From Urechidicola croceus (GTDB lineage Bacteria; Bacteroidota; Bacteroidia; Flavobacteriales; Flavobacteriaceae): DNA of 64,000 bases. The stretch spans positions 414,705 through 478,704 of the forward strand of contig CAJIZG010000005.1 of the NCBI GenBank assembly GCA_905181865.1. The letters run 5' to 3'. Positions 29,475-46,971 of this stretch are shown piece by piece. Made by a program: the position numbers and the translations under genes. A model generated the notes under the pieces. The model saw only the letters and a list, made by a program, of their open reading frames with translations, was not told where the DNA came from and ran no database searches. Position 1 is the first letter of the stretch; each line of letters begins with the position of its first letter.

Positions 29475-30275
29475 CTATGAACTCAATTTATTAAAAAATA
29501 AGAGACTCTTTAAAATGTGTTCCTTCCAATAATCTGCTGTATGTCCGCCAGAAAATTCTTCATAAATATGGGGGATTTGTAATTCTTTTAGTTTTAAATG
29601 AACTTTTCGATTCGACGCAACCAATTCATCCTCTGATCCACAATCAAATCGAAACGGGGAAAGATATTTTTTATTGGATAAAATAGTATCCAATACAGAA
29701 CTCGCCTCTTCCTCTTTTGTAGCATAAAAATCTGGTCCGTCGTCAATAAACAAACTTAAATCTTTAGGATTTGTTACTGAGGAATGACCTGAAAAAGCAT
29801 TAAATATAGATTGATATTTCGCCCCAATTCGCAACGCCCCATATCCTCCCATTGACAGACCGGTAATGAATAATTTTGATTTTATGCTTACCTGTGGGAT
29901 ATTTGATTGAATCGCTGCTACAACATCTTCTACAATCCACTTTTCGAAATCAAATCCGCCTTGTGCAATATATCCGCTACCTCCACCTTTTAATCCATCG
30001 GAAGGCATTACCAAAACCATCGGTTCCAATTCTCCCAACTCAATCAATTTTAATGTTTCGTTATGAACATTCATCTGTCTTGTCCAAGCCCAGTGACTTC
30101 CATACACCCCATGAAGTAAAATTACAACAGGTAAATTCGATGTTTTTTCATTTCCTGGTGGCACAAAAACAGTAATATCACCTCTTCCTTTTAGATGGGT
30201 ACTTTGAACAGTTAAATATCTTAAATTTTCAACTTCATAATCTGGGGTTGAAATACTAACTTCTCTTGTAATCAT
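29475..30275 (-). CDS. Alpha/beta-hydrolase esterase (Fes/S-formylglutathione hydrolase-like family)
   Basis: ILLHGVYGS, GLSMGGYG nucleophile elbow, DCGSED, GGH. Confidence 0.88.
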   Translation of the reverse strand: MITREVSISTPDYEVENLRYLTVQSTHLKGRGDITVFVPPGNEKTSNLPVVILLHGVYGSHWAWTRQMNVHNETLKLIELGELEPMVLVMPSDGLKGGGSGYIAQGGFDFEKWIVEDVVAAIQSNIPQVSIKSKLFITGLSMGGYGALRIGAKYQSIFNAFSGHSSVTNPKDLSLFIDDGPDFYATKEEEASSVLDTILSNKKYLSPFRFDCGSEDELVASNRKVHLKLKELQIPHIYEEFSGGHTADYWKEHILKSLLFFNKLSS

Positions 30276-30286
30276 TCAATATATTT

Positions 30287-31396
30287 TTAAAAAAGAATCA
30301 CTCCTTTTGCATTTTTACCAGAAAGCATATCATCAAACGCCTCTTGAACATTATTTATACGATACCTTTTTGTAATCATTTCATCCAATATTAAATCGCC
30401 CCCTTTATAAAAATCAATCAATCGCGGAAAATCAATTTTAGGTTGACATTTACCATAAAGTGGATTAATATAAATTTTATCCCATTCAAATAAATTCATA
30501 TCAAATACAATCGCTTCCTCTATACCGCTAACTTGAACAGCCATTCCCGCATTTCGAATCATCGCTAAAGGCGCGGCTCCCAAACTCGGAACTCCTGTGC
30601 ATTCAAAAGAAAAATCTGCCCCCCTATTTCCTGTTAATTCTTTTACTTTTTTCGCTACGTTTAATAAACCCTGATCATTTCTATCAGCTAATATTGTATG
30701 CGTTGCCCCATATATCTTGCTCATAGTAAGTCTATCCTGATTTACATCAACAGCAATAATCTTTGACGCTTTTGAAATCCGAGCACCTTGAACCACATTC
30801 AACCCAACTCCACCGGTTCCAAGCACAACAACTGATGCGTTTTCAGTAACCTTAGCAACCTTTAAAACCGACCCTACTCCTGTCATAACTCCACATCCCA
30901 TGATACTGGCAACGTCAAACGGAATCGCCACTTTTGTTTTATGAAGGGCTACTTCTCTCACAACGGTATGTGTAGACATTGTTCCTAAATTAAATGAACG
31001 TTGTATTCCTTTATTTTTAAACAAAGTTCTCTCCAATGGTACGTGACCTTCACTAATTTCTCCTACACCTGTGACTGGAGATTGAACTTCACAAATATTT
31101 TCATTTCCATTTTTACACTGAAAACATGATCCACAGGGCATTGCCCAATTTAAAATGACTTGATCTCCTTTCTTTACTGAAGTAACCTTCTCCCCAATCG
31201 AAATAACAATACCCGCACCTTCGTGTCCCATTACAAATTGATGTCCCCAATTTTTATAAGAATCATAATCTGTATGACAAACACCAGCGGCCTTCATTTC
31301 AACAAGAACTTCATCTCCCTTTGGTTCATCTACTTTAATTTCTTCTAAGGAAAAAGACCCATTTCCATCAGCAATTATTGCTTTAGCATTCATCAT
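30287..31396 (-). CDS. Zn-dependent medium-chain alcohol dehydrogenase
   Basis: GVCHTD, GHEGAG, structural Zn CGSCFQC...C, GCGVMTG, GTGGVG Rossmann fold. Confidence 0.93.
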   Translation of the reverse strand: MMNAKAIIADGNGSFSLEEIKVDEPKGDEVLVEMKAAGVCHTDYDSYKNWGHQFVMGHEGAGIVISIGEKVTSVKKGDQVILNWAMPCGSCFQCKNGNENICEVQSPVTGVGEISEGHVPLERTLFKNKGIQRSFNLGTMSTHTVVREVALHKTKVAIPFDVASIMGCGVMTGVGSVLKVAKVTENASVVVLGTGGVGLNVVQGARISKASKIIAVDVNQDRLTMSKIYGATHTILADRNDQGLLNVAKKVKELTGNRGADFSFECTGVPSLGAAPLAMIRNAGMAVQVSGIEEAIVFDMNLFEWDKIYINPLYGKCQPKIDFPRLIDFYKGGDLILDEMITKRYRINNVQEAFDDMLSGKNAKGVILF

Positions 31397-33200: not shown

Positions 33201-34106
33201 ATGATAGAAAAAAAATTAATTGCAGCAACATATACTCCATTAAAAGAAGACAGTTCCATTAATTTGGAATTAATCCCAACCTATAGTGACTTTCTACAAA
33301 GGAATAATGTATCAGGCGTTTTTGTCAATGGAACCACAGGAGATTTTACCTCATTGACTGTAGACGAGCGAAAATTGATTATTAATGAATGGGCTACAAA
33401 AAGAAATGAAAACTTTACGGTAATTAATCATGTCGGCCATACTAGTTTGAAGATAGCCAAAGAATTAACTATTCATTCAGCAGAGAAAGTAGATGGTATT
33501 TCGGCTTTACCTCCGTTTTATTTTAAACCGAGGTCATTGCAAAGTTTGTTAGATTATTGTAAGGAAATTGCCGCATGTGCTCCGAATTTACCTTTCTACT
33601 ACTATCATATTCCGATTCTTACTGGCGCGAACTTTTCAATGATAGAATTTTTAGAATTGGCAGATGAGCAGATTCCAAACTTAGGCGGAATCAAATTTTC
33701 TAATAATGATATTATAGGGCTAAGGCAGTGCTACAATTTTAAAGCGGGGAAATATGCCGTTTTTTATGGAGTGGATGAAATGTTTTTATCAAGCCTTCCC
33801 TACGGGATTAAAGGCTGGGTGGGTAGTACTTATAACCATTTAGCACCATTGTATCATAAAATTTATGAGGCTTTTAATAAGGGAGATATATCCTTGGCCA
33901 GTGAACTACAAGATAAGTCGGTTCAGTTTGTGCAAATGCTAGATGCTTTGGGTGGCTTCAATGGCGTAGGGAAATCGTTTATGAAAATAGTAGGAATTGA
34001 TTGCGGGCCGAGTAGATATCCTCATACGACACTTTCTAACAAGGATTTGTTAGAAGTAAAAACACAATTTGAAGAATTAAATATTATGAGTTACACTAAT
34101 AAATAG
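33201..34106 (+). CDS. nanA: N-acetylneuraminate lyase (DHDPS family)
   Basis: VNGTTGD, YYYHIP (catalytic Tyr), GIKFS (Schiff-base Lys), GVDE, GSTYN; sialic-acid gene context. Confidence 0.85.
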   Translation: MIEKKLIAATYTPLKEDSSINLELIPTYSDFLQRNNVSGVFVNGTTGDFTSLTVDERKLIINEWATKRNENFTVINHVGHTSLKIAKELTIHSAEKVDGISALPPFYFKPRSLQSLLDYCKEIAACAPNLPFYYYHIPILTGANFSMIEFLELADEQIPNLGGIKFSNNDIIGLRQCYNFKAGKYAVFYGVDEMFLSSLPYGIKGWVGSTYNHLAPLYHKIYEAFNKGDISLASELQDKSVQFVQMLDALGGFNGVGKSFMKIVGIDCGPSRYPHTTLSNKDLLEVKTQFEELNIMSYTNK

Positions 34107-34129: not shown

Positions 34130-34837
34130 TTATAAAATTCTGTAAAAATGAGGATCTAAATGAGTTCTCATGGCTGATCTGAAAGTCTCTGGTGTTCCAA
34201 TTTTAAGATTGTCGAGAAGATTTCTGTGGTTAATAATCGAACCTTTTACATGGTCTTTGGAAAGTTCTTCTTGTTCATGTACAAACTCAAAAATAGGGAG
34301 TAATAAAACTTGAAATCTTTGCAGAGTCACATTTCCAGACATTTGATATAACTTTCCATGAAACTGAATTTCATGTTCTAAGCTAAAAATGGAATCGTCA
34401 ACGCCCTGTTTTTCATCTGCCTCAACAATTTGTTCTAATTCGTCAATTCCTTTTTGTGTTTTTCTAGCAAATAAGGAGTCTGCCATTCCCATTTCTAAAA
34501 TTAACCGCAACTCAAATAGGTTTTTTAACGTCTCGTTACCTAATAACTTTGGATCCAAAACACGTTCGAAATTATCAATAAAATCGGGCTGTGTTAAAAT
34601 CATTCCTCGGTGCTTTTTAGATTCAATAATACCTAAAGTTCTTAATCTAAGCGACGCTTCTCGCACAACTGTCCTGCTTACTCCTAGCGATTCAACCAGT
34701 TCTAATTCCTTAGGAAAGGCATCTCCTGGAACTAAATTATTCTCTTTAATAAATGCCACCAATCGAAGTTCAACTTTATCAACAAGTGATAAATTATCTA
34801 AGGGTTTAATTTTCTTAATAGTTTTTGTTTTTGCCAT
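34130..34837 (-). CDS. FadR/GntR family transcriptional regulator (probable nan repressor)
   Basis: wHTH ELELVESLGVSRTVVREA, FCD domain LFELRLILE...FHGKL; divergent from the nanE operon. Confidence 0.92.
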   Translation of the reverse strand: MAKTKTIKKIKPLDNLSLVDKVELRLVAFIKENNLVPGDAFPKELELVESLGVSRTVVREASLRLRTLGIIESKKHRGMILTQPDFIDNFERVLDPKLLGNETLKNLFELRLILEMGMADSLFARKTQKGIDELEQIVEADEKQGVDDSIFSLEHEIQFHGKLYQMSGNVTLQRFQVLLLPIFEFVHEQEELSKDHVKGSIINHRNLLDNLKIGTPETFRSAMRTHLDPHFYRIL

Positions 34838-34949: not shown

Positions 34950-34962
34950 TATGTTAGACATA
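34950..34962 (+). promoter_or_regulatory. Putative FadR/GntR operator TATGTTAGACATA just downstream of promoter TATGTTTG (34939-34946)
   Basis: Core of a 7-bp-arm palindrome ATTATGT-TAG-ACATAAT (34948-34964). Confidence 0.72.
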
Positions 34963-36138
34963 ATGAAAGAGATCCAACTAAGCGAACTTTACAAAAGCAC
35001 TCTTTTACAAGATGTGATTCCATTTTGGGAGCAAAATTCTGTCGACTGGCAAAATGGAGGGTACTATACTTGCCTAGATAGGAAGGGGAAAGTTTTTGAG
35101 CGGGATAAGTTTATGTGGCTACAAGGTCGACAAGCTTGGATGTTTTCTATGCTGTATAATAATGTTGAGAAAAATGAAAAATGGCTGAAAATCGCAAAAA
35201 ACGGAATTGATTTCTTAATCAATAAAGGAATGGATCTCGAGGGGAATTTCTATTTTTCATCTACAGAACAAGGAGAGCCTTTAGTTCAGCCATATAATAT
35301 ATTCTCAGATTGCTTTGCGGCTATGGCTTTTAGTCAATACGCAATTGCAACTAAAGACGAATCAATAAAAAAACTAGCAATTCAAACATATTATAATATT
35401 TTAAAGAAAAAAGACAATCCAAAATTACAGTTCGAAAAATCTACCGGAGCCAGACCTTTAAAAAGTTTTGCATTTCCGATGATTCTTTCCAATTTGGTAA
35501 TTGAATTTGAAGATGTGTTAAAAAATGAGGAAGTTGAAAAAATAATTAACTTTAGTATTCATGAAGTTATGGAAGTCTTTTTAGATAAAAATTCTGGACT
35601 TGTTTATGAATTTGTAAAACCTGATGGTTCTTTAGAAGACAGTTTCAACGGGCGTCTTCTAAATCCGGGCCATGGTATCGAAGCAATGTGGTTTATGATG
35701 GATATTGGGGTTCGAAGAAATGATCAACAATTAATTCAAAAAGCAGTAAACACAACAATAAAAATATTGGAACATAGCTGGGATGATCAGTTTGGAGGCA
35801 TCCTATATTTCATGGATGCTAATGGAAAACCACCTCAACAATTAGAATGGGATCAAAAATTGTGGTGGGTACATTTAGAAAGTTTAATAGCATTATCTAA
35901 AGCGTATGAACTAACACAAAGAAAAGAAGTACTGGCTTGGTATCAAAAAGTACACGACTATGCATGGTCACATTTTTCAGACCCAGAGAACGGCGAATGG
36001 TTTGGCTATTTAAACAGACAAGGCGAGGTGTTACTAGATTTAAAAGGTGGGAAATGGAAGGGTTGTTTTCATGTCCCAAGAGCCATGTATCAGTGCTGGA
36101 AATCATTTGAAAATATTGAGAGACAATTAAAGGATTAA
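34951..36138 (+). CDS. nanE: N-acylglucosamine 2-epimerase (AGE family; likely start ATG 34963)
   Basis: [41 protein letters not shown]. Confidence 0.93.
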
Positions 36139-36143
36139 ATAGT

Positions 36144-36917
36144 ATGAATAATAAACCAAGACCTTATATTCTTTCAGAAACCAATTGGAAAACTGTTAAA
36201 GAAAATACGTATACCGTGGCAATGCTACCTTGGGGTGCTACAGAAGCGCATAATTACCACTTACCTTATGCCACAGATACCATTCAGGCTATCTATGTTG
36301 CAAGTGAATCAGCAAGACTTGCATGGGAAACAAAGGCAAAACCAATTGTACTGCCTGCCATACCGTTTGGAGTAAACACGGGTCAAATGGATATTCCATT
36401 GTGTATAAATATGAATCCATCTACACAATATGCCGTTTTAAAGGATATCGTTCAAGTATTGGACAGTCATAATATCGACAAACTTTTGATTGTGAATAGT
36501 CATGGAGGAAATAATTTTAAGCAAATGATTCGTGAGTTAAGTCTGGAATATCCTGATGTTTTTATATGTACCATAAATTGGTGGCAAGCAGTAAATGTTT
36601 CAATATATTTCGATGAGCCTGGAGATCATGCCGGTGAGTTGGAAACTTCTGCCATGCAATTTATAACCCCAGATTGGGTGTTACCATTAAAAGATGCCGG
36701 AAATGGAAAAGCCAAGCAATTTAAATTAAAAGGATTGAAAGAAGGGTGGGTTTCTTCTCAACGTAAATGGACATCCGTTACTAAAGATACTGGTGTGGGT
36801 AATCCGCAATTTGCCACCAAAGAAAAAGGAGAATTATTTTTAAAAGAAGTTACAAAATCTATCGGTGAATTTATTGTAGAACTACACCACGCAGATTTAA
36901 ATAATTTATATGAATAA
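36144..36917 (+). CDS. Creatininase-family metal amidohydrolase
   Basis: GATEAHNYHLP..TD, NSHGGN, DHAGELETS. Confidence 0.9.
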   Translation: MNNKPRPYILSETNWKTVKENTYTVAMLPWGATEAHNYHLPYATDTIQAIYVASESARLAWETKAKPIVLPAIPFGVNTGQMDIPLCINMNPSTQYAVLKDIVQVLDSHNIDKLLIVNSHGGNNFKQMIRELSLEYPDVFICTINWWQAVNVSIYFDEPGDHAGELETSAMQFITPDWVLPLKDAGNGKAKQFKLKGLKEGWVSSQRKWTSVTKDTGVGNPQFATKEKGELFLKEVTKSIGEFIVELHHADLNNLYE

Positions 36918-36940
36918 TATATCTAATCAAATTCGAAAAA

Positions 36941-38074
36941 ATGAAAAATTATATTCTAGTATTCTTATCAATTTTAACACTTTCTGTAAGTGCTCAAAAG
37001 GAAGAATTCTCGATTGCCGAGGGAGTTACTCGGTATGTCGATCTTTTTAATACAACCATGGAAGACGGAGTTTCTTGTTATCGAATTCCATCAATTGTTA
37101 CGGCTCCAAATGGAGATATAATTGCAACTATAGATGAGCGCGTTCCATCGTGCTCGGATTTAAAAGACAGTAAAGACATCAATATTGCGATTCGAAGAAG
37201 TTCTAATAACGGAAAATCATGGACACCTATTGAAATTATTGTAGATTTTCCGTTGGGACAATCTGCTTCAGATCCATCTATGATTGTTGATAATATCACA
37301 AAGGAAATTTTCTTGTTTTACAATTATATGGATTTAGACAAGGAAAAGGATGTGTATTATTTACATGTGGTAAAAAGTGCTGATAATGGAAAAACTTGGA
37401 GTAAACCAGAAGATATTACTTCTCAAATTAGTAAGCCAGAATGGCACAAGGACTTTAAATTTATTACTTCAGGCAGAGGAATTCAAACATCTACGGGTAA
37501 GTTGTTACATTGTATGGTAAACCTAGATAATGGTACGCATTTGTTCGGAAGTGATGATCATGGTAAAACATGGTTTTTTATTGATACTCCAATTTCTCCA
37601 GCAAATGAATCTAAGGTTATTGAATTGGCTGATGGAACTTGGATGGTCAATGCGAGATCCAAAGATAAAAAAGGCTTTCGATATGTACATACTTCTCATG
37701 ATGAAGGAGAAACATGGACTGCAAAGTCCGAAGAACAATTGATAGATCCAGGTTGCAATGCAAGTATTATTAGATATACATCAATTGATGAAGGCTATAA
37801 AAAAAACAGACTTCTTTTTTCAAATGCAAATTCCGTAAAAGGCCGAGTAAACATGACTGTGAAAATTAGTTATGATGAAGGTAAAACATGGCCTGTAGAA
37901 AAAATAATTTATGAAGGTGGATCAGCCTATTCCTCATTAACGATTCTAGAAAATGGAGATATAGGATTATTTTTTGAACAAGATGTTTATAAGAAAAATC
38001 CATTCGTGAGTTTTTCCTTAAAATGGTTGACCGATGGTGACGATAAATACAAAAAACCGAAGAGCCTAAAATAG
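36941..38074 (+). CDS. Exo-sialidase GH33 (1)
   Basis: Signal peptide, YRIP, five Asp boxes (SSNNGKSW...SYDEGKTW), SAYS Tyr nucleophile. Confidence 0.92.
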   Translation: MKNYILVFLSILTLSVSAQKEEFSIAEGVTRYVDLFNTTMEDGVSCYRIPSIVTAPNGDIIATIDERVPSCSDLKDSKDINIAIRRSSNNGKSWTPIEIIVDFPLGQSASDPSMIVDNITKEIFLFYNYMDLDKEKDVYYLHVVKSADNGKTWSKPEDITSQISKPEWHKDFKFITSGRGIQTSTGKLLHCMVNLDNGTHLFGSDDHGKTWFFIDTPISPANESKVIELADGTWMVNARSKDKKGFRYVHTSHDEGETWTAKSEEQLIDPGCNASIIRYTSIDEGYKKNRLLFSNANSVKGRVNMTVKISYDEGKTWPVEKIIYEGGSAYSSLTILENGDIGLFFEQDVYKKNPFVSFSLKWLTDGDDKYKKPKSLK

Positions 38075-38129: not shown

Positions 38130-40994
38130 ATGAAGAAACTTTTCGAGGAATTGCAAAATACAGTATCAGGTGAAATCTTATATGATGAGCTTTCTTTAGG
38201 AATGTATTCTACCGATGCTAGTATTTATCAGATAAAGCCAATTGCCATAGTTCTACCTCGAAATGAAGACGATATCAAAAGTGCCATAAAGGTGGCTTTT
38301 GATAACGGAATAACTATTTTACCTCGTGGAGCAGGAACTAGTTTGGCAGGACAAACTGTTGGCAAATCTATTATTCTTGATTTCTCTAAACATATGAATT
38401 CCATTATTGAAATCAATGAATCAGAGAAATGGGTTCGTGTTCAACCGGGAATGGCTCGAGACGATTTAAACGCCGTTTTAGAACCCCTAGGGTTACATTT
38501 TGCTCCAGACCCAGCAACAAGTAGCAGAGCAAATGTTGGAGGAATGGTTGGTAATAACTCTTCTGGGACTAAGAGCGTACTCTTTGGTAAAACAGTAGAT
38601 CATGTATTAGAAGTCAATGTTGTTTTAGCAGAAGGGACTGAATTACATCTTAAAAATTGTTCGCCAGAAGAGTACCAAAAGAAAGCATCTCAAGAAAATA
38701 GAGAAGGAGAAATTTATCGCACCATTAAGGACTTAATCGATGCGCATACGGATGAAATCAAAGAACGATTTCCTAAGGTAATGCGTCGCGTTGGAGGCTA
38801 TAATTTAGATGAATTTGTATATACAGATCAATGGAACTTGAGTAAGTTGGTTTGTGGTAGTGAAGGAACACTTGCAACAACAGTTGATCTAAAATTAAAT
38901 CTTGTTGATTTACCCAAAAATAAATCAGTATGTGTAGTTCACTTTACTGAATTGTTGGAAGCAATTTCTGCCGTTGAAATAATATTAACATTTAATCCCT
39001 CAGCCGTTGAAATATTAGATAAAACGGTTATTGGGTTAAGTAGAAAGAATTTAATGACAAAGCATCATTGTCATTTCATAGAAGGTAATCCAGCCGCAAT
39101 ATTAATTGTGGAGTTTTATGCAGATACTGCCGAGGATGTTATGGAGCGTCCAAAAAAGATGATTACTTTGTTAGAGGAAACCAATTTTGGTTACGCATAT
39201 CCTTTATTTCCCGATGGAAAATCATACAGTGATGTTTGGATAGTTCGTAAAAAGGGATTGGGATTAATGTTAGGTTTAAAAGGAAATAAAAAACCACTAC
39301 CATTTATTGAAGATGCCGGAATTCCATCAAAATATTTACCAGAATATATAGATCAAGTTTTAAAGGTTTGTGAAAAGTACGGAACCAAAGCAGCAATGTA
39401 TGCACATGCAAGTGTAGGCGTTATTCATGTACGTCCAATTTTAGATTTGAGGTTGGCAGAGGATATTGAACGCTTAAAAAATATTACCGATGACACTTTT
39501 CAATTAGTCATGAAATACAAAGGTTCTTGGAGTGGTGAGCATGGTGATGGATTGGTAAGAAGTGCCTACAACAAACGTTTTTTTGGAGATACAATTTATA
39601 AGGTGTTTTTAGACGTTAAAAAGTTAATGGATCCAAAAAATTTAATGAATCCCGGTAAAATTATTGAAGCTCAAACTATTGAGCACAATTTAAGATATGG
39701 TGTTGCCTATAAAGATGAGGGGGTAAAAACTGAATATAATTATAAGTCAGAAGAAGGATTCGAAGCGGCAGTTCATATGTGTTCTGGTGTAGGTGAATGC
39801 AGAAAGGTTTTGGGAGGAACTATGTGTCCAAGTTTTAAAGCTACGAGAGATGAAGAACATTCTACGCGTGGACGCGCGAATGCCTTGAGGCTGGCCATGT
39901 CGAATCAACTGGGAGAAAAAGGCCTGTCTAGTAAACGATTGCATGAGGTTATGGATTTATGCTTGTCTTGCAAGGCTTGTAAGTCAGAATGCCCGAGTAA
40001 TGTAGACATGGCAAAGATGAAGAGTGATGCCTTACAAATGTATTATGATGAACACGGCATTTCATTAAGAGATAAACTAATACGAGATTCTGCTAAGGCG
40101 GCGAGTAAGATTTCAGGTTCAAAAGCAGGCCTCGTAAATGCCATTCAAAAAACAGATTTATTTAAGTTTTTCTTAGAAAAAGCGGCACGTTTTGACAAGC
40201 GAAGGACACTTCCAGATTTTGCCAAAGAACCCTTTTATAAATGGTTTAAGAAAAACGCAAGAGAAACAAATATTGGAAACAAAAAAGTAGTTTTATTTGC
40301 CGACACCTATTTAAATTATCACGAGCCTCATATCGGAATATCTGCTCTAGAATTGTTAAATTCTTGTGGGTATGAAGTCATCTTAGCAAATGTTGGTTGT
40401 TGTCAAAGACCAAAGATATCTCATGGCTTTTTAAGAGACGCCAAGCAGGAAGGTATAAAAACTATTGACGGGTTAAAACCATTTTTAGATCAAGGTTTAA
40501 AAGTTGTGGTCTGTGAACCAAGTTGTGCTTCGGCATTGAATGACGATTTACCAGATTTAATTACCGATCAAGCAATTGCAGAACAACTAAAAAATGGCGT
40601 TATGATGATTGATGTTTTCCTTGCAAATGAATATGAAAACGAAAGATTAGATGTAGACTTTGAGCCAGTTTCTGACGGTATTGTGATTCACGGTCACTGT
40701 CATCAAAAGGCATTGTATGGCACAAATACGATGAAATCGTTGTTAAAAAATTCTGATAAGGTATCGGAAATTCCTTCGGGCTGTTGTGGTATGGCTGGTT
40801 CTTTTGGATACGAAAAGGAACATTATGATCTGTCTAAGAAAATTGGTGACGAAATTTTATTTCCAGCGGTTAATAAATTAGATAAAAATCATGAATTGAT
40901 AGCTTGCGGATTTAGTTGTCGCCACCAAATAGGACACTTTACAGAGGCAAATCCAAAGCATTTTGTGGAAGTAATTAGAGCTGTTAAAAAATAA
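38130..40994 (+). CDS. FAD-binding/Fe-S 2-hydroxy-acid dehydrogenase (GlcD-GlcF/YdiJ-type fusion)
   Basis: PRGAGTSLAGQ, GSEGTL, SGEHGDG, ferredoxin CLSCKACKSECP, CCG domains GCCQ and SGCCGMAGSFG. Confidence 0.9.
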   Translation: MKKLFEELQNTVSGEILYDELSLGMYSTDASIYQIKPIAIVLPRNEDDIKSAIKVAFDNGITILPRGAGTSLAGQTVGKSIILDFSKHMNSIIEINESEKWVRVQPGMARDDLNAVLEPLGLHFAPDPATSSRANVGGMVGNNSSGTKSVLFGKTVDHVLEVNVVLAEGTELHLKNCSPEEYQKKASQENREGEIYRTIKDLIDAHTDEIKERFPKVMRRVGGYNLDEFVYTDQWNLSKLVCGSEGTLATTVDLKLNLVDLPKNKSVCVVHFTELLEAISAVEIILTFNPSAVEILDKTVIGLSRKNLMTKHHCHFIEGNPAAILIVEFYADTAEDVMERPKKMITLLEETNFGYAYPLFPDGKSYSDVWIVRKKGLGLMLGLKGNKKPLPFIEDAGIPSKYLPEYIDQVLKVCEKYGTKAAMYAHASVGVIHVRPILDLRLAEDIERLKNITDDTFQLVMKYKGSWSGEHGDGLVRSAYNKRFFGDTIYKVFLDVKKLMDPKNLMNPGKIIEAQTIEHNLRYGVAYKDEGVKTEYNYKSEEGFEAAVHMCSGVGECRKVLGGTMCPSFKATRDEEHSTRGRANALRLAMSNQLGEKGLSSKRLHEVMDLCLSCKACKSECPSNVDMAKMKSDALQMYYDEHGISLRDKLIRDSAKAASKISGSKAGLVNAIQKTDLFKFFLEKAARFDKRRTLPDFAKEPFYKWFKKNARETNIGNKKVVLFADTYLNYHEPHIGISALELLNSCGYEVILANVGCCQRPKISHGFLRDAKQEGIKTIDGLKPFLDQGLKVVVCEPSCASALNDDLPDLITDQAIAEQLKNGVMMIDVFLANEYENERLDVDFEPVSDGIVIHGHCHQKALYGTNTMKSLLKNSDKVSEIPSGCCGMAGSFGYEKEHYDLSKKIGDEILFPAVNKLDKNHELIACGFSCRHQIGHFTEANPKHFVEVIRAVKK

Positions 40995-41025: not shown

Positions 41026-42138
41026 ATGAAAACCTATAAAGAATTAAACACAAGCAGACGCGTATTAATGGGTCCTGGACCAAGTGATACGCATCCAAGA
41101 GTTTTAAAAGCAATGTCAACTCCTTTAATAGGTCATTTAGACCCAGAATTTTTAGAAATAATGGATGACATAAAATCTATGACACAAGAAACATTAAAGA
41201 CAAAGAACGAATTGACTTTTGTTGTATCAGCACCTGGAAGTGCAGGGATGGAAACGTGTTTGGTTAATTTATTAGAGCCTGGTGATGAAGCCGTAGTCTG
41301 TATAAATGGTGTTTTTGGGACACGTTTGGCTGATATTGCAGAACGTTGTGGCGCAAAAGTAATTAAGATAGAAGCAGCATGGGGCTCTCCAATTAACCCA
41401 GACGATGTGGAAGCTGCATTAAAGACATGTAATCCAAAATTATTAGCTATTGTCCATGCAGAGACTTCAACAGGTGTATTACAGCCTCTAGAAGAAATTA
41501 GCAAAATATCCAAAAACGCTGGAGCACTTTTAGTAGTTGATGCTGTGACTTCATATTGCGGGACTGAATTAAAAGTAGATGAGTGGGGAATTGATGCTTT
41601 ATATTCTGGAAGCCAAAAATGTTTAAGTGCGCCTCCTGGTCTATCTCCTGTAACCTTTAGTCAAGCTGCTATTGATGTACTAAATAATAGAAAAACAAAA
41701 GTTCAAAGTTGGTTTTTAGATTTAACAATGGTTAAAAATTATTGGTCAGGAGCGAAGAGAGCGTATCATCATACGGCACCAGTTTCTGCTATGTTTGCCA
41801 TGAGGGAAGCTTTAAGATTGGTTCTTGAAGAGGGGCTTGAAAACAGGTTTAAGCGTCATCAGAAAAATCACGAATTATTACGTGATGGATTAGAGGCAAT
41901 GGGCTTTAAATTCTTAGTGGATAAGGAATATAGATTACCGATGTTGAACGCCGTTACAATTCCTGCAGGAGTTGACGATGCAAATGTTAGAAAACGATTG
42001 TTAGAAGAATATAATATAGAAATTGGTGGAGGATTAGGCCCTTATGCTGGAAAAATTTGGCGTATTGGATTAATGGGTGAAAGTTCTACTAAAAATAATG
42101 TAAACATGTTATTGTCTGCATTGAAACAAGTAATATAA
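41026..42138 (+). CDS. Alanine--glyoxylate/serine--pyruvate aminotransferase (class V)
   Basis: LMGPGPS, VHAETSTG, VDAV, SGSQKCLSAPPG, YHHTAP, WRIGLMG. Confidence 0.92.
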   Translation: MKTYKELNTSRRVLMGPGPSDTHPRVLKAMSTPLIGHLDPEFLEIMDDIKSMTQETLKTKNELTFVVSAPGSAGMETCLVNLLEPGDEAVVCINGVFGTRLADIAERCGAKVIKIEAAWGSPINPDDVEAALKTCNPKLLAIVHAETSTGVLQPLEEISKISKNAGALLVVDAVTSYCGTELKVDEWGIDALYSGSQKCLSAPPGLSPVTFSQAAIDVLNNRKTKVQSWFLDLTMVKNYWSGAKRAYHHTAPVSAMFAMREALRLVLEEGLENRFKRHQKNHELLRDGLEAMGFKFLVDKEYRLPMLNAVTIPAGVDDANVRKRLLEEYNIEIGGGLGPYAGKIWRIGLMGESSTKNNVNMLLSALKQVI

Positions 42139-42151
42139 TACTAAATTAATT

Positions 42152-43036
42152 ATGTCAGTAATCACAGATTTTTCCGATTTTCATCATCAGGTTTCAACAA
42201 TATTTAAACAGCCTCAGTCCTCAGAAGAATGGGAGCAATATCGATTGACCGATGAGCAAGTAGCACATTTTCATGAATTTGGTTACGTTTCTGGAATTAA
42301 ACTCTTGGAAGAAAATCAAATAAATTTATTGAGAAAGGAACTAGAAGAGTTGAGAGATCCTAAACATCCTGCGCATCATCTTTTTTACGAGTTTCATTCA
42401 AATGAATCCACAAATAGTGATGCTGTTTTGTTTCATTCTTTAGGTCATTGGCGCATAGGTTTAAATTTTCATGACGTCCTTTGGAATCCCGCTTTTGTAA
42501 TGGCCGCTCATCAATTATTGGAAAACAAACCAGTTCGATTCTGGCACGATCAACTATTTTGTAAACCTGCAAAACATGGTGGAGTTGTTGCCTGGCACCA
42601 AGATTACTCTTACTGGACACGTACTATTGCAATGCAACATTTAACCTGTTGGACTGGGTTAGATGATGCTACAACACAAAACGGCTGTTTACATTATATT
42701 CCAAAAAGTCACAAATGGGGGCTTCTAGATGCCCCTAATTTGGCTGGTAATATGGATGAATTGCTGCAGTATCTGAGTCCCGAACAAAAAAAGGAATTCA
42801 ACCCAGTAGCGATTGAATTGAAAAAAGGGTATAGTACTTTTCACCATCCTTTGATGGTTCATGGATCCTATGAAAACAACTCTCAATTAAGAAGAAGAGC
42901 TTTTGTATTAAACGTTTTTGCTGATGGAACCATAAGCAATACAGATCAAGAATTATTACAAGGTGTTCCTATAATTTCAAAAGGAAAAAAAATGGAGGGA
43001 AAATTTTTTCCTTTGCTTTATGATCAACATTCCTAA
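42152..43036 (+). CDS. PhyH-family Fe(II)/2-oxoglutarate dioxygenase
   Basis: HxD in WHQDYSYW, distal His in MVHGS, Arg in RRRAF. Confidence 0.9.
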   Translation: MSVITDFSDFHHQVSTIFKQPQSSEEWEQYRLTDEQVAHFHEFGYVSGIKLLEENQINLLRKELEELRDPKHPAHHLFYEFHSNESTNSDAVLFHSLGHWRIGLNFHDVLWNPAFVMAAHQLLENKPVRFWHDQLFCKPAKHGGVVAWHQDYSYWTRTIAMQHLTCWTGLDDATTQNGCLHYIPKSHKWGLLDAPNLAGNMDELLQYLSPEQKKEFNPVAIELKKGYSTFHHPLMVHGSYENNSQLRRRAFVLNVFADGTISNTDQELLQGVPIISKGKKMEGKFFPLLYDQHS

Positions 43037-43078: not shown

Positions 43079-44224
43079 ATGAAACTTAATGTAAAAACTT
43101 TTATTAAATGCCTTACCCTCTTACTATTATTCAGTATCAAAATAAATTCACAGGGTACGAAGCAATTAAATAAAGAATTATCGAAAGATATAAAAACGTT
43201 GTTCACCCCTAGTGAAGGAGACTATAATTGTTTTAGAATTCCAGCTGTTGTTGTGGCTAAAGACGGCAGTATATTAGCCTTTGCTGAGGCTAGAAAGAAA
43301 AGTTGCTCGGATACAGGTAATATCGATATAGTGATGAAAAAATCTACTGACAATGGAGCATCATGGAGTAATTTGATAGTTATTTGGAATGATGGACAAA
43401 ATGTATGTGGGAATCCTGCACCTGTAGTAGATGCTAAAACAGGTACAGTTCATTTGCTATTGACTTGGAATAATGGAGACGACCATGAATCTGAAATAAT
43501 TGCTCAAACTAGTGGAGAAACTCGAGAAGTTTATCATTTACAATCTTCAGACAACGGTGACTCTTGGTCACAACCAAAAAATATTACTGCAACTACGAAA
43601 TTAAAAAATTGGACGTGGTATGCAACAGGGCCTGTACATGGAATTCAATTGAAAAAAGGGCCATATAAAGGAAGGCTCATGATTCCTTCGGACCATATAG
43701 AAGCGGGTACAAAAAAATATTATTCTCATGTGATTTATTCTGACGACAACGGAGTATCTTGGGAATTGGGAGGAAGAACTCCACAAGATCAAGTGAATGA
43801 ATGTACACTAGTACAACTAGAAAATGGTGATTTGATGTTGAACATGCGTAATTATGAGCGAAAAGAAGATCAGGCGCGTCAGGTAGCAATAAGCAAAGAT
43901 GGAGGAGTGACATGGGGAAATCAGCATATTGACACCAATTTGCCCGAACCACGTTGTCAAGCAGCCTTACTAGCTGTTATGAGAAAACGGAAGCAAGTAT
44001 TACTTTTTATCAATCCAGCAAACCCAAAGAAAAGAGTCAATATGACACTATCTGTGAGTAGGGATCAAGGAAAAAGTTGGGATGAAAAAATCAGTGTTTT
44101 TAAAGGCCCTTCCGCCTATTCTGATCTTGTTGAATTGAATACCAATCAAATATTTGTGTTTTTTGAAGCAGGAGAAAAGAATGCGTATGAAGGAATTCAT
44201 TATAAATTAATTGATCTGGATTAA
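43079..44224 (+). CDS. Exo-sialidase GH33 (2)
   Basis: Signal peptide, FRIP, five Asp boxes, NMRN, AYSD. Confidence 0.92.
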   Translation: MKLNVKTFIKCLTLLLLFSIKINSQGTKQLNKELSKDIKTLFTPSEGDYNCFRIPAVVVAKDGSILAFAEARKKSCSDTGNIDIVMKKSTDNGASWSNLIVIWNDGQNVCGNPAPVVDAKTGTVHLLLTWNNGDDHESEIIAQTSGETREVYHLQSSDNGDSWSQPKNITATTKLKNWTWYATGPVHGIQLKKGPYKGRLMIPSDHIEAGTKKYYSHVIYSDDNGVSWELGGRTPQDQVNECTLVQLENGDLMLNMRNYERKEDQARQVAISKDGGVTWGNQHIDTNLPEPRCQAALLAVMRKRKQVLLFINPANPKKRVNMTLSVSRDQGKSWDEKISVFKGPSAYSDLVELNTNQIFVFFEAGEKNAYEGIHYKLIDLD

Positions 44225-44280: not shown

Positions 44281-46971
44281 ATGAAACAATTAGCGGTTGT
44301 TCTACTTTTATACTTCCTAAGTTTTATTAATTCAAATGCTCAAAAATCTTCTAGTATTTTTGATTGGACTTACGATAAAGAGATTCCGAATGAAGTAGGA
44401 TTGAATGGTTCATTTATGGGAATTCATAATGATGTATTAATCATTGCAGGTGGTGCTAATTTTCCAAACACTCCTGTCTGGGAAGGTGGTGAAAAAGTAT
44501 GGTATTCATCCATTTATGTTTTAGAAAAAAAAGGGACTAAGTCGAAATGGCATCTAGAACCTTCAGTTAGATTAACTAATGCATTGGCATACGGAGTTTC
44601 AATAAGCACTCCACAAGGTGTTTTGTGCATTGGTGGTGATAATGAAACAGAAGTATTCAAAGATGTCTTTTTATTAAAATGGAATAAAAAAAGCAATAAA
44701 ATAGAGATTCAAGACCTACCTCCTATGCCTATAAATTTATACAATATGGGCGCAAGTATTGTTGAAGATATTGTTTTTGTAATTGGAGGACAAGAGTCAA
44801 AAAGTACCGGAGCAACAAATCATTTTTTGTCGTTTAATTTAACTTCAACATTGACAAGTAAAGCATATACATGGGAGCAATTAGAAAATTTTCCTGGAAG
44901 AAGGAGAGTGCAACCGGTAGTTGTTGGTCAAAGTAATGGACATCAAGATTGTTTATATGTATTTAGTGGAATTTCATATGATCCCACTGCAGAAGTAACC
45001 CATACTATGCTAGATGATGTCTATGAATTTAATCCTCATAAAAATCGATGGACACAAAAGGAATCTGTTCCCAACAATGGAACACCGGGAGTAATAGGAG
45101 GTTATATTGCGGCTGCTCCAGCCATAAAAATGGGAGATTCTCACATTGTGATTTTTGGAGGAGCCGGAGGTGAACAGCAAAACCTTTCGCGACGAATTCC
45201 GATTTGGAATGCCATTAAAAAGTTAAAAAGTGAAATTAATCAAAATGAAGAAACGATTGCGAAAATTGATTCATTAAATATGATTGATAATGAATTGTTG
45301 AAAACCACTCGATTCAGTAAAATCGTTTGGTCATATCATTCAATCACAGATACTTGGAGTAAAAAAGGGGTGCTACCAAGTGACGCTCAGGTAGTAACTC
45401 AAGCATTGAATTGGAATAATAACATAGTAATATCTGGTGGAGAAATACATCCAGGTGTAAGAACTCCAAAAATTACCATTGCCACACAAAAACCCTATGA
45501 AGCCAGTTTTGGCTGGATAAATTATATAACTCTTATTACATATTTAATGTTAATGGTTTGGATGGGATGGTATTTCTCACGAAAAAATAAAACAACAGAT
45601 GATTATTTTCTTGCGGGAGGTAGAATTCCATGGTGGGCTGCTGGGTTAAGTATTTATGCTACTATGTTAAGTGCCATTACGTATTTGTCACAACCGGCAT
45701 TAGCATATTCTTTTGACTGGCAGGCATATTTGGGGTATTTTGCCATTTTGATTGTAGTCCCTGTTGTAATAGCTTTTTATCTGCCTTTTTTCAGGAAATT
45801 AAATATTACCACGGCATACGAATATTTGGAAAAAAGATTCAACTTAACTATTAGAATGTTTGGAAGTATATCTTTCATCTTATTTCAATTAGTAAGAATG
45901 GGAATTGTAGTATATCTTCCTGCCTTAGCCCTTTCAACAGTTGTCGGAATTGATATTTATTTAGCAATCAGTGTTATGGGGGTTTTAGCAATTCTTTATA
46001 CCTATATGGGTGGAATGGAAGCCGTGATCTGGACAGATGTGGTACAAGTAATTGTATTGATGGCAGGTTTAATCATTGGATTGATTTATATCGGCATTGA
46101 GATTGGAGATGTAGGCTATATTTTTGATACGGCATTGGCCGATGGTAAACTTCAAATGGTAGATTTACGATGTAGTTTTATAGAAGTAGTAACATGGTCC
46201 TTATTTATTGGCACATTTGCTTTGACATTAATTCCATACACCACAGACCAGTCAGTAGTGCAGAGATACATGACGACATCGAGTGAAAAAGAAGCACGAA
46301 AAAGTATATGGCTAACTGGAATTATTACTCTCCCAGCGGGTCTTCTAATATTTGCAATGGGTACATTTTTGTATGTCTATTTTAAAGAACATCCCGAATT
46401 TTTGAGTGTCGGTATGCAGAACGACAGTGTATTTCCTTTATTTATTACAAATCATTTACCTCCTGGGGTTGCAGGTTTGGTTATAGCTGGAATTTTTTCT
46501 GCTTCCATGTCGAGTTTAGATAGCAGTATGCACAGTATTTCTACCGTTGTGACCGTAGATTTTTATAAGAGATTTACGAAAGTCTATTCTGATACTAATG
46601 GTCTTAAAATTGCAAAATGGACTACAGTTATTGTAGGAGTTTTCGGAACCCTGATTGCATGTTTAATGGCCGCTTTCCCTGTAAAATCGTTATTCTTTTT
46701 GTTTCAAGAAGTAATTGGTCTTCTGGGAAGTGCAATGGCAGGAATATTTATTCTCGGAATTTTTGTTAAGAAAGCCAATTGGAAGGGAACACTAATAGGA
46801 GCTGTATTTAGTATTATAGTTTTAGTGTTTGTTAAATATAACACCCCTATTAACTTTTATATCTATCCTTTAATTGCAATTCCTATATGTGTCATTGGAG
46901 GATATCTTTTCAGTCTAATTTTAAAAGTTGAAGAAAAAGACATATCCGATTTGGTCTATTCAAAAAAATAA
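44281..46971 (+). CDS. Kelch-repeat sialic acid mutarotase (NanM-like) fused to a Na+/solute symporter (SiaT-like)
   Basis: Signal peptide; about 410 aa kelch propeller (IAGGANFP, LCIGG, VIGG, ISGGEIHPGVRTP); then SSS domain DYFLAGG..WWAAGLSIYAT.LSAITY, YTYMGGMEAVIWTD, DQSVVQRY. Confidence 0.88.
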   Translation: MKQLAVVLLLYFLSFINSNAQKSSSIFDWTYDKEIPNEVGLNGSFMGIHNDVLIIAGGANFPNTPVWEGGEKVWYSSIYVLEKKGTKSKWHLEPSVRLTNALAYGVSISTPQGVLCIGGDNETEVFKDVFLLKWNKKSNKIEIQDLPPMPINLYNMGASIVEDIVFVIGGQESKSTGATNHFLSFNLTSTLTSKAYTWEQLENFPGRRRVQPVVVGQSNGHQDCLYVFSGISYDPTAEVTHTMLDDVYEFNPHKNRWTQKESVPNNGTPGVIGGYIAAAPAIKMGDSHIVIFGGAGGEQQNLSRRIPIWNAIKKLKSEINQNEETIAKIDSLNMIDNELLKTTRFSKIVWSYHSITDTWSKKGVLPSDAQVVTQALNWNNNIVISGGEIHPGVRTPKITIATQKPYEASFGWINYITLITYLMLMVWMGWYFSRKNKTTDDYFLAGGRIPWWAAGLSIYATMLSAITYLSQPALAYSFDWQAYLGYFAILIVVPVVIAFYLPFFRKLNITTAYEYLEKRFNLTIRMFGSISFILFQLVRMGIVVYLPALALSTVVGIDIYLAISVMGVLAILYTYMGGMEAVIWTDVVQVIVLMAGLIIGLIYIGIEIGDVGYIFDTALADGKLQMVDLRCSFIEVVTWSLFIGTFALTLIPYTTDQSVVQRYMTTSSEKEARKSIWLTGIITLPAGLLIFAMGTFLYVYFKEHPEFLSVGMQNDSVFPLFITNHLPPGVAGLVIAGIFSASMSSLDSSMHSISTVVTVDFYKRFTKVYSDTNGLKIAKWTTVIVGVFGTLIACLMAAFPVKSLFFLFQEVIGLLGSAMAGIFILGIFVKKANWKGTLIGAVFSIIVLVFVKYNTPINFYIYPLIAIPICVIGGYLFSLILKVEEKDISDLVYSKK

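Follow-up and report, generated by a model that had tools for sequence, protein, structure and literature searches.

A creatininase-family gene, hereafter CRE, turns up repeatedly in the sialic-acid gene clusters of Bacteroidota from marine and gut habitats. In the window, by which we mean the whole 64,000-nucleotide stretch of Urechidicola croceus DNA analysed here, CRE is an intact open reading frame at positions 36144-36917 of the plus strand, with an ATG start and a product of 257 amino acids. We tentatively propose that the product may act as an accessory cytoplasmic deacylase of N-acyl-hexosamines, freeing acetate or glycolate. Textbook sialic-acid catabolism consists of lyase, epimerase, kinase, NagA and NagB and is considered closed, and our literature search returned no paper linking the creatininase family with sialic acid, lyase, epimerase, GlcNAc or glucosamine. 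CRE represents an uncharacterised branch of an established enzyme family, placed within a well-studied pathway, and is in that sense no categorical surprise.

Profile, active-site and structural comparisons all place CRE in the creatininase superfamily. The Pfam Creatininase profile (PF02633) matched the protein over profile positions 2-238 of 238 (E value 2.3e-54; 184.8 bits, cut-off 31.3), and an alignment of 26 sequences spanning Bacteroidota, Ignavibacteriota and Gemmatimonadota revealed eight invariant residues: E34, H36, D45, H120, D161, H162, E167 and R207. HMMER alignments placed E34, H36, D45, H120 and E167 on the metal ligands of solved creatininases, bearing out the sequence-only reading, which had listed all five ligands (E, H, D, H, E) as present; the catalytic H162 of creatininases was likewise aligned and retained. 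We take these residues to have the metal-ligand and catalytic roles described for creatininases. An AF2 model (pLDDT 86.4) superposed on 3LUB with a Foldseek TM of 0.92 and on creatininases with 0.73-0.79 (about 0.76). The sequence carries no predicted signal peptide, and CRE is predicted to be a cytoplasmic, binuclear-metal hydrolase.

Several other leads on the protein were followed. Four genomes carry weak paralogues of CRE (about 30% identity), which sit with enolase-superfamily genes and are unrelated to the role of CRE, and an ESM Atlas feature search outside PF02633 gave no usable match. An apparent GlmS-CRE fusion (P0125, 925 aa) was rejected, as its proline/arginine-rich nonsense linker is typical of out-of-frame read-through in high-GC DNA; it shows at most that glmS and CRE are adjacent in one metagenome contig, and no glmS gene lies near CRE in the 82 orthologue loci described below. 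Other candidate fusions (Metallophos, Fe-ADH) were single cases only and were also set aside.

The nearest solved structure is PDB 3LUB, Bacteroides fragilis NCTC 9343 YP_211512.1, a structural-genomics 'putative creatinine amidohydrolase' of unassigned function, which matches CRE over residues 16-252 (phmmer E value 2e-60) and is 44% identical to it. The two proteins have in common the motifs LPWGATE-HN-HLPY-TD, HGGNNFK and DHAGE-ETS, and CRE belongs to this uncharacterised, 3LUB-like clade of the creatininase family. Orthologues at 56-78% identity fill more than 8000 database clusters and often bear the name 'creatinine amidohydrolase'. Taken literally, that name would make CRE a true creatinine amidohydrolase, a reading for which the database names and the shared fold and metal site speak but which we regard as extremely improbable. 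CRE scores 68.2 bits against the creatininase equivalog (EC 3.5.2.10; TIGR04448), far below the cut-off of 235, and is only 21-23% identical to the solved creatininases (PDB 1J2T/1Q3K/3A6x). After the His120 ligand, creatininase reads HYEN, in which we take Tyr121 and Glu122 to be the creatinine-binding residues, whereas CRE reads HGGN, and G121/G122 are found in CRE and all orthologues. Gene context differs as well: creatininase genes lie in a creatine context and CRE in a sialic-acid context, with no creatinase or sarcosine oxidase gene in the locus.

Three other characterised systems share the superfamily and metal site with CRE. The mycofactocin peptidase MftE (TIGR03964) scored 70.5 bits (cut-off 172), the formamide hydrolase ArfB (NF033501) 26 bits (cut-off 180), and the 3-dehydro-scyllo-inosose hydrolase IolN (NF041098) 33.3 bits (cut-off 245) in a partial match over residues 18-178; no riboflavin/F420, mycofactocin or inositol genes were found near CRE. 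Since all four equivalog scores fall far under their cut-offs, CRE is not creatininase, MftE, ArfB or IolN. Characterised members of the family cleave small amides, namely creatinine, a formamide (ArfB) and a peptide bond (MftE), while IolN, by its NCBIfam description a C-C hydrolase acting on a bond of a diketo-inositol, indicates that the creatininase fold can accept a carbohydrate-like substrate. We know of no member of the family with biochemically established N-deacylase activity on sugars. The reaction type proposed for CRE, in which a metal-dependent enzyme hydrolyses the N-acyl amide of a sugar, is that of NagA and of PIG-L/LmbE; the NagA family is unrelated to CRE, the PIG-L fold is only remotely similar, and all three co-occur in amino-sugar-using genomes.

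The genomic surroundings of CRE constitute a sialic-acid locus. A DHDPS-family N-acetylneuraminate lyase-like gene (33201-34106, plus strand; PF00701), whose 156 bits against NF003164 lie below the equivalog cut-off of 281, co-occurs with the epimerase and CRE in related loci. It is followed by a NanR-like GntR/FCD regulator on the minus strand (34130-34837; PF00392 and PF07729; NanR subfamily, 95 bits) and by an AGE-type N-acylglucosamine 2-epimerase (34951-36138, plus strand; NF052547, 638.8 bits with a cut-off of 600; PF07221). This AGE/renin-binding-protein type is the 'NanE' of Bacteroides usage, unlike the E. coli ManNAc-6-P epimerase. The earlier placement of CRE 5 bp after nanE was correct, and the spacer between epimerase stop and CRE start (36139-36143) makes co-transcription or translational coupling likely. 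Downstream, all on the plus strand, lie a first GH33 sialidase (36941-38074; signal peptide, YRIP motif), which among the genes downstream of CRE is its steadiest companion; a 954-aa FAD-oxidase/Fe-S 2-hydroxy-acid dehydrogenase of GlcD+GlcF/GlpC-like, YdiJ-like type (FADox; 38130-40994); its partner, a class-V aminotransferase of the glyoxylate/pyruvate type (AT5; 41026-42138); a PhyH-family Fe(II)/2-oxoglutarate dioxygenase (42152-43036), which recurs in about 10 CRE-bearing sialic loci; a second GH33 sialidase (43079-44224; signal peptide, FRIP motif); and a SiaF-type fusion of NanM mutarotase and SSS sialic-acid transporter (44281-46971).

No terminator-like sites were detected on the plus strand between 34951 and 36941, and none interrupts the plus-strand run; promoter and terminator scans performed at chance level and used the sigma-70 consensus, which is not applicable to Bacteroidota. 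RNA-library contigs from two marine studies (at least 99% identity) bridge positions 36864-37060, spanning the CRE stop and the start of the first sialidase, and constitute weak evidence of in-situ transcription. The body of CRE is uncovered by metatranscriptome contigs, which is no evidence of silence, and the full stretch 36864-37060 is present in DNA runs of at least five studies, marine or estuarine. Complex prediction for AGE and CRE from paired alignments (19 rows) gave no support for an interaction, and this is evidence neither way.

Just upstream of the locus (29475-31396) are a class-III-type ADH and an esterase-D-like esterase that resemble a formaldehyde-detoxification pair; the same pair precedes CRE-GH33-PhyH in another locus (L010). 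Together with PhyH, the pair would fit a pathway in which methylated sialic acids are O-demethylated oxidatively. A DDE transposase gene (PF13612; 50803-51432, minus strand) is found 4 kb beyond the downstream end of the sialic operon. In view of this transposase and of a genome of the same genus (G155) from which CRE, AGE and NagA are all absent, the sialic locus looks accessory within the genus.

To place this arrangement in a broader context, we compared 82 orthologue loci, comprising 80 genome loci and two further ones from Tenacibaculum maritimum and Aureibaculum. Sialic-acid loci accounted for 25 of the 82; they share the core seen in the window, with AGE-CRE-GH33 as the commonest gene order, and in most of them AGE lies directly upstream of CRE or GH33 directly downstream. 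The remaining 57 loci are non-sialic, with heterogeneous neighbours such as pseudouridine synthase, leuS, pgi and flavin monooxygenase, and no Pfam family recurs among the 42 same-strand neighbours surveyed in non-sialic loci. Such unrelated genes (leuS, pgi, pseudouridine synthase) flank the orthologues of Gemmatimonadota, of Saprospiria and of some Flavobacteriaceae, those of Gemmatimonadota and Saprospiria being 56-60% identical to CRE and placed in housekeeping contexts. The motif residues of CRE are all kept in sialic-eating and non-sialic-eating genomes alike.

The CRE protein tree follows taxonomy. One well-supported Flavobacteriaceae clade holds 37 CRE copies, 25 of which lie in sialic loci; 11 of its 12 non-sialic copies form one subclade, and the twelfth is a mis-called open reading frame. 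Both this topology and the 57 heterogeneous non-sialic loci would fit a housekeeping role that has nothing to do with amino sugars, the sialic placement of CRE then being inherited Flavobacteriaceae gene order. We consider that explanation unlikely, because sialic contexts also arise independently in Bacteroidales. There, CRE occurs in 24 of 201 sampled genomes (about 12%), and 5 of 20 contexts are sialic, with far more divergent CREs: examples are MFS-NanA-AGE-CRE, in which CRE is 38% identical, and GH33-GH20-esterases-NanM-CRE. Given such divergent contexts, the pairing of AGE and sialidase with CRE is old or recurrent and not a single inherited accident. Synteny with lyase, AGE, GH33 and transporter was thus observed in 25 of 82 orthologue loci, in 5 of 20 Bacteroidales contexts and in G041, a genome of another genus discussed below.

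Additional genes accompany CRE in subsets of these loci. An LrgA/LrgB carrier pair directly follows CRE, about 0.8-1.8 kb downstream, in 13 sialic and non-sialic loci (L008, L009, L011-L013, L015, L018, L019, L021, L023, L029, L032 and L040), among them Salegentibacter loci without sialic-acid genes. In three MAG loci, genes of LrgAB size lie upstream of CRE, but they proved to be LiaF-like and were discounted. Four Arenibacter loci (L024, L028, L031, L034) carry a compact module within the sialic locus, some 3-5.5 kb past CRE, made up of an AraC regulator, PhyH, an aldo-keto reductase and a second creatininase-family paralogue that is 20% identical to CRE; this module might be a phosphorylation-independent amino-sugar side path.

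Genome-level co-occurrence was assessed in 201 genomes, one for each of 200 Flavobacteriaceae genera plus that of Urechidicola croceus. CRE was present in 45 and AGE in 23 of the 201, with CRE in 18 of the 23 AGE-positive but 27 of the 178 AGE-negative genomes; since related genomes are not independent, these and the following ratios are indicative only and overstate the case. AGE is missing from 27 of the 45 CRE-positive genomes, and of the 18 genomes carrying both genes, 10 have them unlinked. NagB (108 of 201 genomes) was found in all 45 CRE-positive genomes, compared with 63 of 156 CRE-negative ones, and also in each of the five genomes outside this sample (Gemmatimonadota, Saprospiria and Ignavibacteria) that carry CRE and were checked, bringing the total to 50 of 50 examined. 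Indicative as they are, the counts tie CRE to amino-sugar catabolism and show that it is dispensable. They also bear on the housekeeping explanation: NagB accompanies every CRE examined, and the patchy distribution (45 of 201 genera), together with absence from G155, argues that CRE is not a housekeeping gene.

NagA-like genes were rare, occurring in 16-19 of the 201 genomes. CRE was commoner in their presence, at 12 of 19 NagA-positive genomes against 45 of 201 overall. Among the 15 AGE-positive, NagA-negative genomes, 11 carry CRE, and the other four have neither CRE nor NagA, all with a fusion of NagB and PIG-L. In the genome under study, the sequence-only reading was right that the locus holds no nagA, nagB or kinase: no NagA, NagB, ROK or BadF-type kinase match was found in the 64-kb window (C5:414705-478704). 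Such genes do exist elsewhere, namely a NagA-like gene (C3:329774-330982) with 217 bits, just under the cut-off of 225.65, a short NagB (C3:327721-328419) and ROK-family genes on contigs C1 and C3.

The genome further encodes a 637-aa protein in which NagB (PF01182) is fused to a PIG-L/LmbE domain of GlcNAc deacetylase type (PF02585), in the C5:568468-569196 region (L088:358-2271, minus strand), about 90 kb past the window end. Nearly all Flavobacteriaceae NagB matches are open reading frames of about 640 aa, and this genome's copy has the C-terminal PIG-L domain. The NagB::PIG-L fusion is the obvious candidate for the 'non-NagA' deacetylase of Flavobacteriaceae. Non-orthologous displacement of NagA by CRE was accordingly rejected, as a NagA-like gene is present in the genome and no anti-correlation with NagA was found. 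The earlier view of CRE as an enzyme filling a gap left by NagA is not supported on the same grounds, given the NagA-like gene, the fusion, the 12 of 19 NagA-positive genomes with CRE and the four AGE-positive genomes that lack both CRE and NagA. A GalNAc hypothesis was also dismissed, there being no AgaS-family gene in this genome.

The FADox-AT5 pair downstream of CRE has a distinct history. A housekeeping FADox paralogue (38-43% identity) occurs in 182 of the 201 genomes, including this one at C1:188 kb, whereas true orthologues (80% identity) occur in only three: this genome, G041 and G176. In the latter two, an LctP-family lactate/glycolate permease precedes FADox and then AT5 (80-84% identity), far from CRE (L140:5910-11598 and L142:8577-14308). 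This permease-linked arrangement in two other genera suggests that FADox-AT5 is a portable unit for glycolate/lactate uptake, oxidation and transamination. By comparison of the arrangements, the copy in the window is a specialised paralogue module put into the sialic operon minus its usual permease, and the missing LctP fits an acid substrate made inside the cell. These findings support the idea that sialic-acid breakdown here yields an intracellular 2-hydroxy acid, for which glycolate split from N-glycolyl groups and lactate split from O-lactyl groups are the candidates. They do not identify CRE as the source of this acid, nor is the link between module and CRE a conserved one: of 82 related loci, a single one has FADox close to CRE and none has AT5 there, and the FADox-AT5 pair adjoins CRE only in the genome under study. 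The sialic locus of G041 reads SusC-SusD-NanA-AGE-GH33-PhyH-GntR-CRE-SiaF, without the FADox-AT5 module. In a separate cluster of the same genome (G041:C8; L141:7715-16195), a second AGE paralogue (57% identity) lies without CRE among a ROK regulator, GHL10, an SSS transporter, DUF4434 and an FAD-dependent oxidoreductase; this looks like another uncharacterised N-acyl-sugar pathway.

The earlier suggestion was that CRE removes an N-glycolyl (or N-acetyl) group and supplies glycolate to the downstream dehydrogenase. In its strict form, this would make CRE an amidase specialised on N-glycolyl groups, with Neu5Gc-derived hexosamine or Neu5Gc itself as substrate, that feeds FADox and AT5. The three genes do share one operon in the window, orthologues of the FADox-AT5 module elsewhere trail a lactate/glycolate permease that is absent here, implying an intracellular source of acid, and PhyH with the formaldehyde-type ADH and esterase would fit the O-methylated N-glycolyl sialic acids of echinoderms. 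Against these points, the single FADox and zero AT5 occurrences in 82 loci show no general coupling, the two other true FADox orthologues among the 201 genomes are not near CRE, CRE is a core gene of sialic loci devoid of any glycolate module (Tenacibaculum maritimum, Aureibaculum, Gelidibacter), and 27 genomes have CRE without AGE. Moreover, E. coli NagA reportedly processes the N-glycolyl sugar phosphate, so a special glycolyl enzyme would not be obligatory. We therefore judge a dedicated glycolyl amidase very unlikely. What survives of the suggested glycolate supply is the resemblance of FADox-AT5 to a glycolate/lactate module; conserved coupling to CRE does not. Similarly, the broader idea of an amino-sugar N-deacylase keeps its footing in an intact enzyme of amidohydrolase type tied to sialic and amino-sugar catabolism, while the N-glycolyl specificity is not supported, given the 27 of 45 CRE-positive genomes lacking the epimerase and the 56-60% identical orthologues in housekeeping contexts.

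According to the deacylase reading that we propose, lyase and epimerase would yield free GlcNAc or ManNAc, or just as well the N-glycolyl counterparts of these sugars. CRE, presumably co-transcribed with the AGE epimerase and the sialidase, would cleave the N-acyl amide of the free N-acyl-hexosamine to give acetate or glycolate plus a hexosamine that would feed into the NagB route. FADox-AT5 would consume the acid in this genome, and LrgA/LrgB would export it in loci where these carriers follow CRE. CRE would thus be a parallel accessory step, not a replacement for NagA or NagB::PIG-L. The reading draws on family chemistry, cytoplasmic location, the pairing of AGE with CRE, the co-occurrence with NagB and a 'small acid' theme, that is, LrgA/LrgB after CRE in 13 loci and a hydroxy-acid module without permease here. 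Weighing against it are the redundancy with the NagA-like enzyme and NagB::PIG-L in the same genome, the orthologues outside sialic contexts, the lack of precedent in the family, the positive correlation with NagA, the four AGE-positive genomes with neither CRE nor NagA, the 27 of 45 CRE-positive genomes without AGE, and the frequent separation of AGE and CRE.

A different explanation takes CRE as a side-path or repair enzyme of amino-sugar or sialic metabolism that acts on another small substrate, for which a lactam, a lactone, an oxazoline-type by-product, a formamide, an acetamide or an IolN-like diketo-sugar ring are candidates. The broad chemistry of the family, which extends over a cyclic amide, a formamide, a peptide bond and a diketo-inositol C-C bond, would accommodate it. 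Such a role would be non-redundant with NagA and PIG-L and fits their co-occurrence with CRE; the 56-60% identity across phyla and the retention of motifs with or without a sialic diet suggest a general metabolite, and 6 of about 100 loci have a GFO-type dehydrogenase in the vicinity of CRE. However, no conserved neighbour points to a specific substrate, and the tight AGE-CRE pairing suggests that CRE acts on the substrate or product of the epimerase. This explanation is possible but somewhat doubtful.

Extended to the whole 3LUB-like clade, the deacylase proposal would describe the first sugar-acting amidases of the creatininase family, performing phosphorylation-independent N-deacylation of free N-acetyl and N-glycolyl hexosamines parallel to NagA and PIG-L in the sialic-acid catabolism of Bacteroidota, with the acid exported through LrgAB or, here, oxidised and transaminated by a captured glycolate module; we regard this generalisation as rather doubtful. 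In loci with PhyH, and with an aldo-keto reductase in Arenibacter, free hexosamine might even be deaminated oxidatively and never phosphorylated.

CRE occurs in about a quarter of the sampled Flavobacteriaceae genera and about 12% of the sampled Bacteroidales genomes, and the sialic loci that contain it belong to marine bacteria, to Bacteroidales and to Tenacibaculum maritimum, a pathogen of fish. Pathway reconstruction should take into account that most Flavobacteriaceae lack NagA but have the NagB::PIG-L fusion. The clade to which CRE belongs has had a crystal structure since 2010. Assigning its function would add an extra step or branch to host-glycan foraging and would correct thousands of 'creatinine amidohydrolase' annotations.
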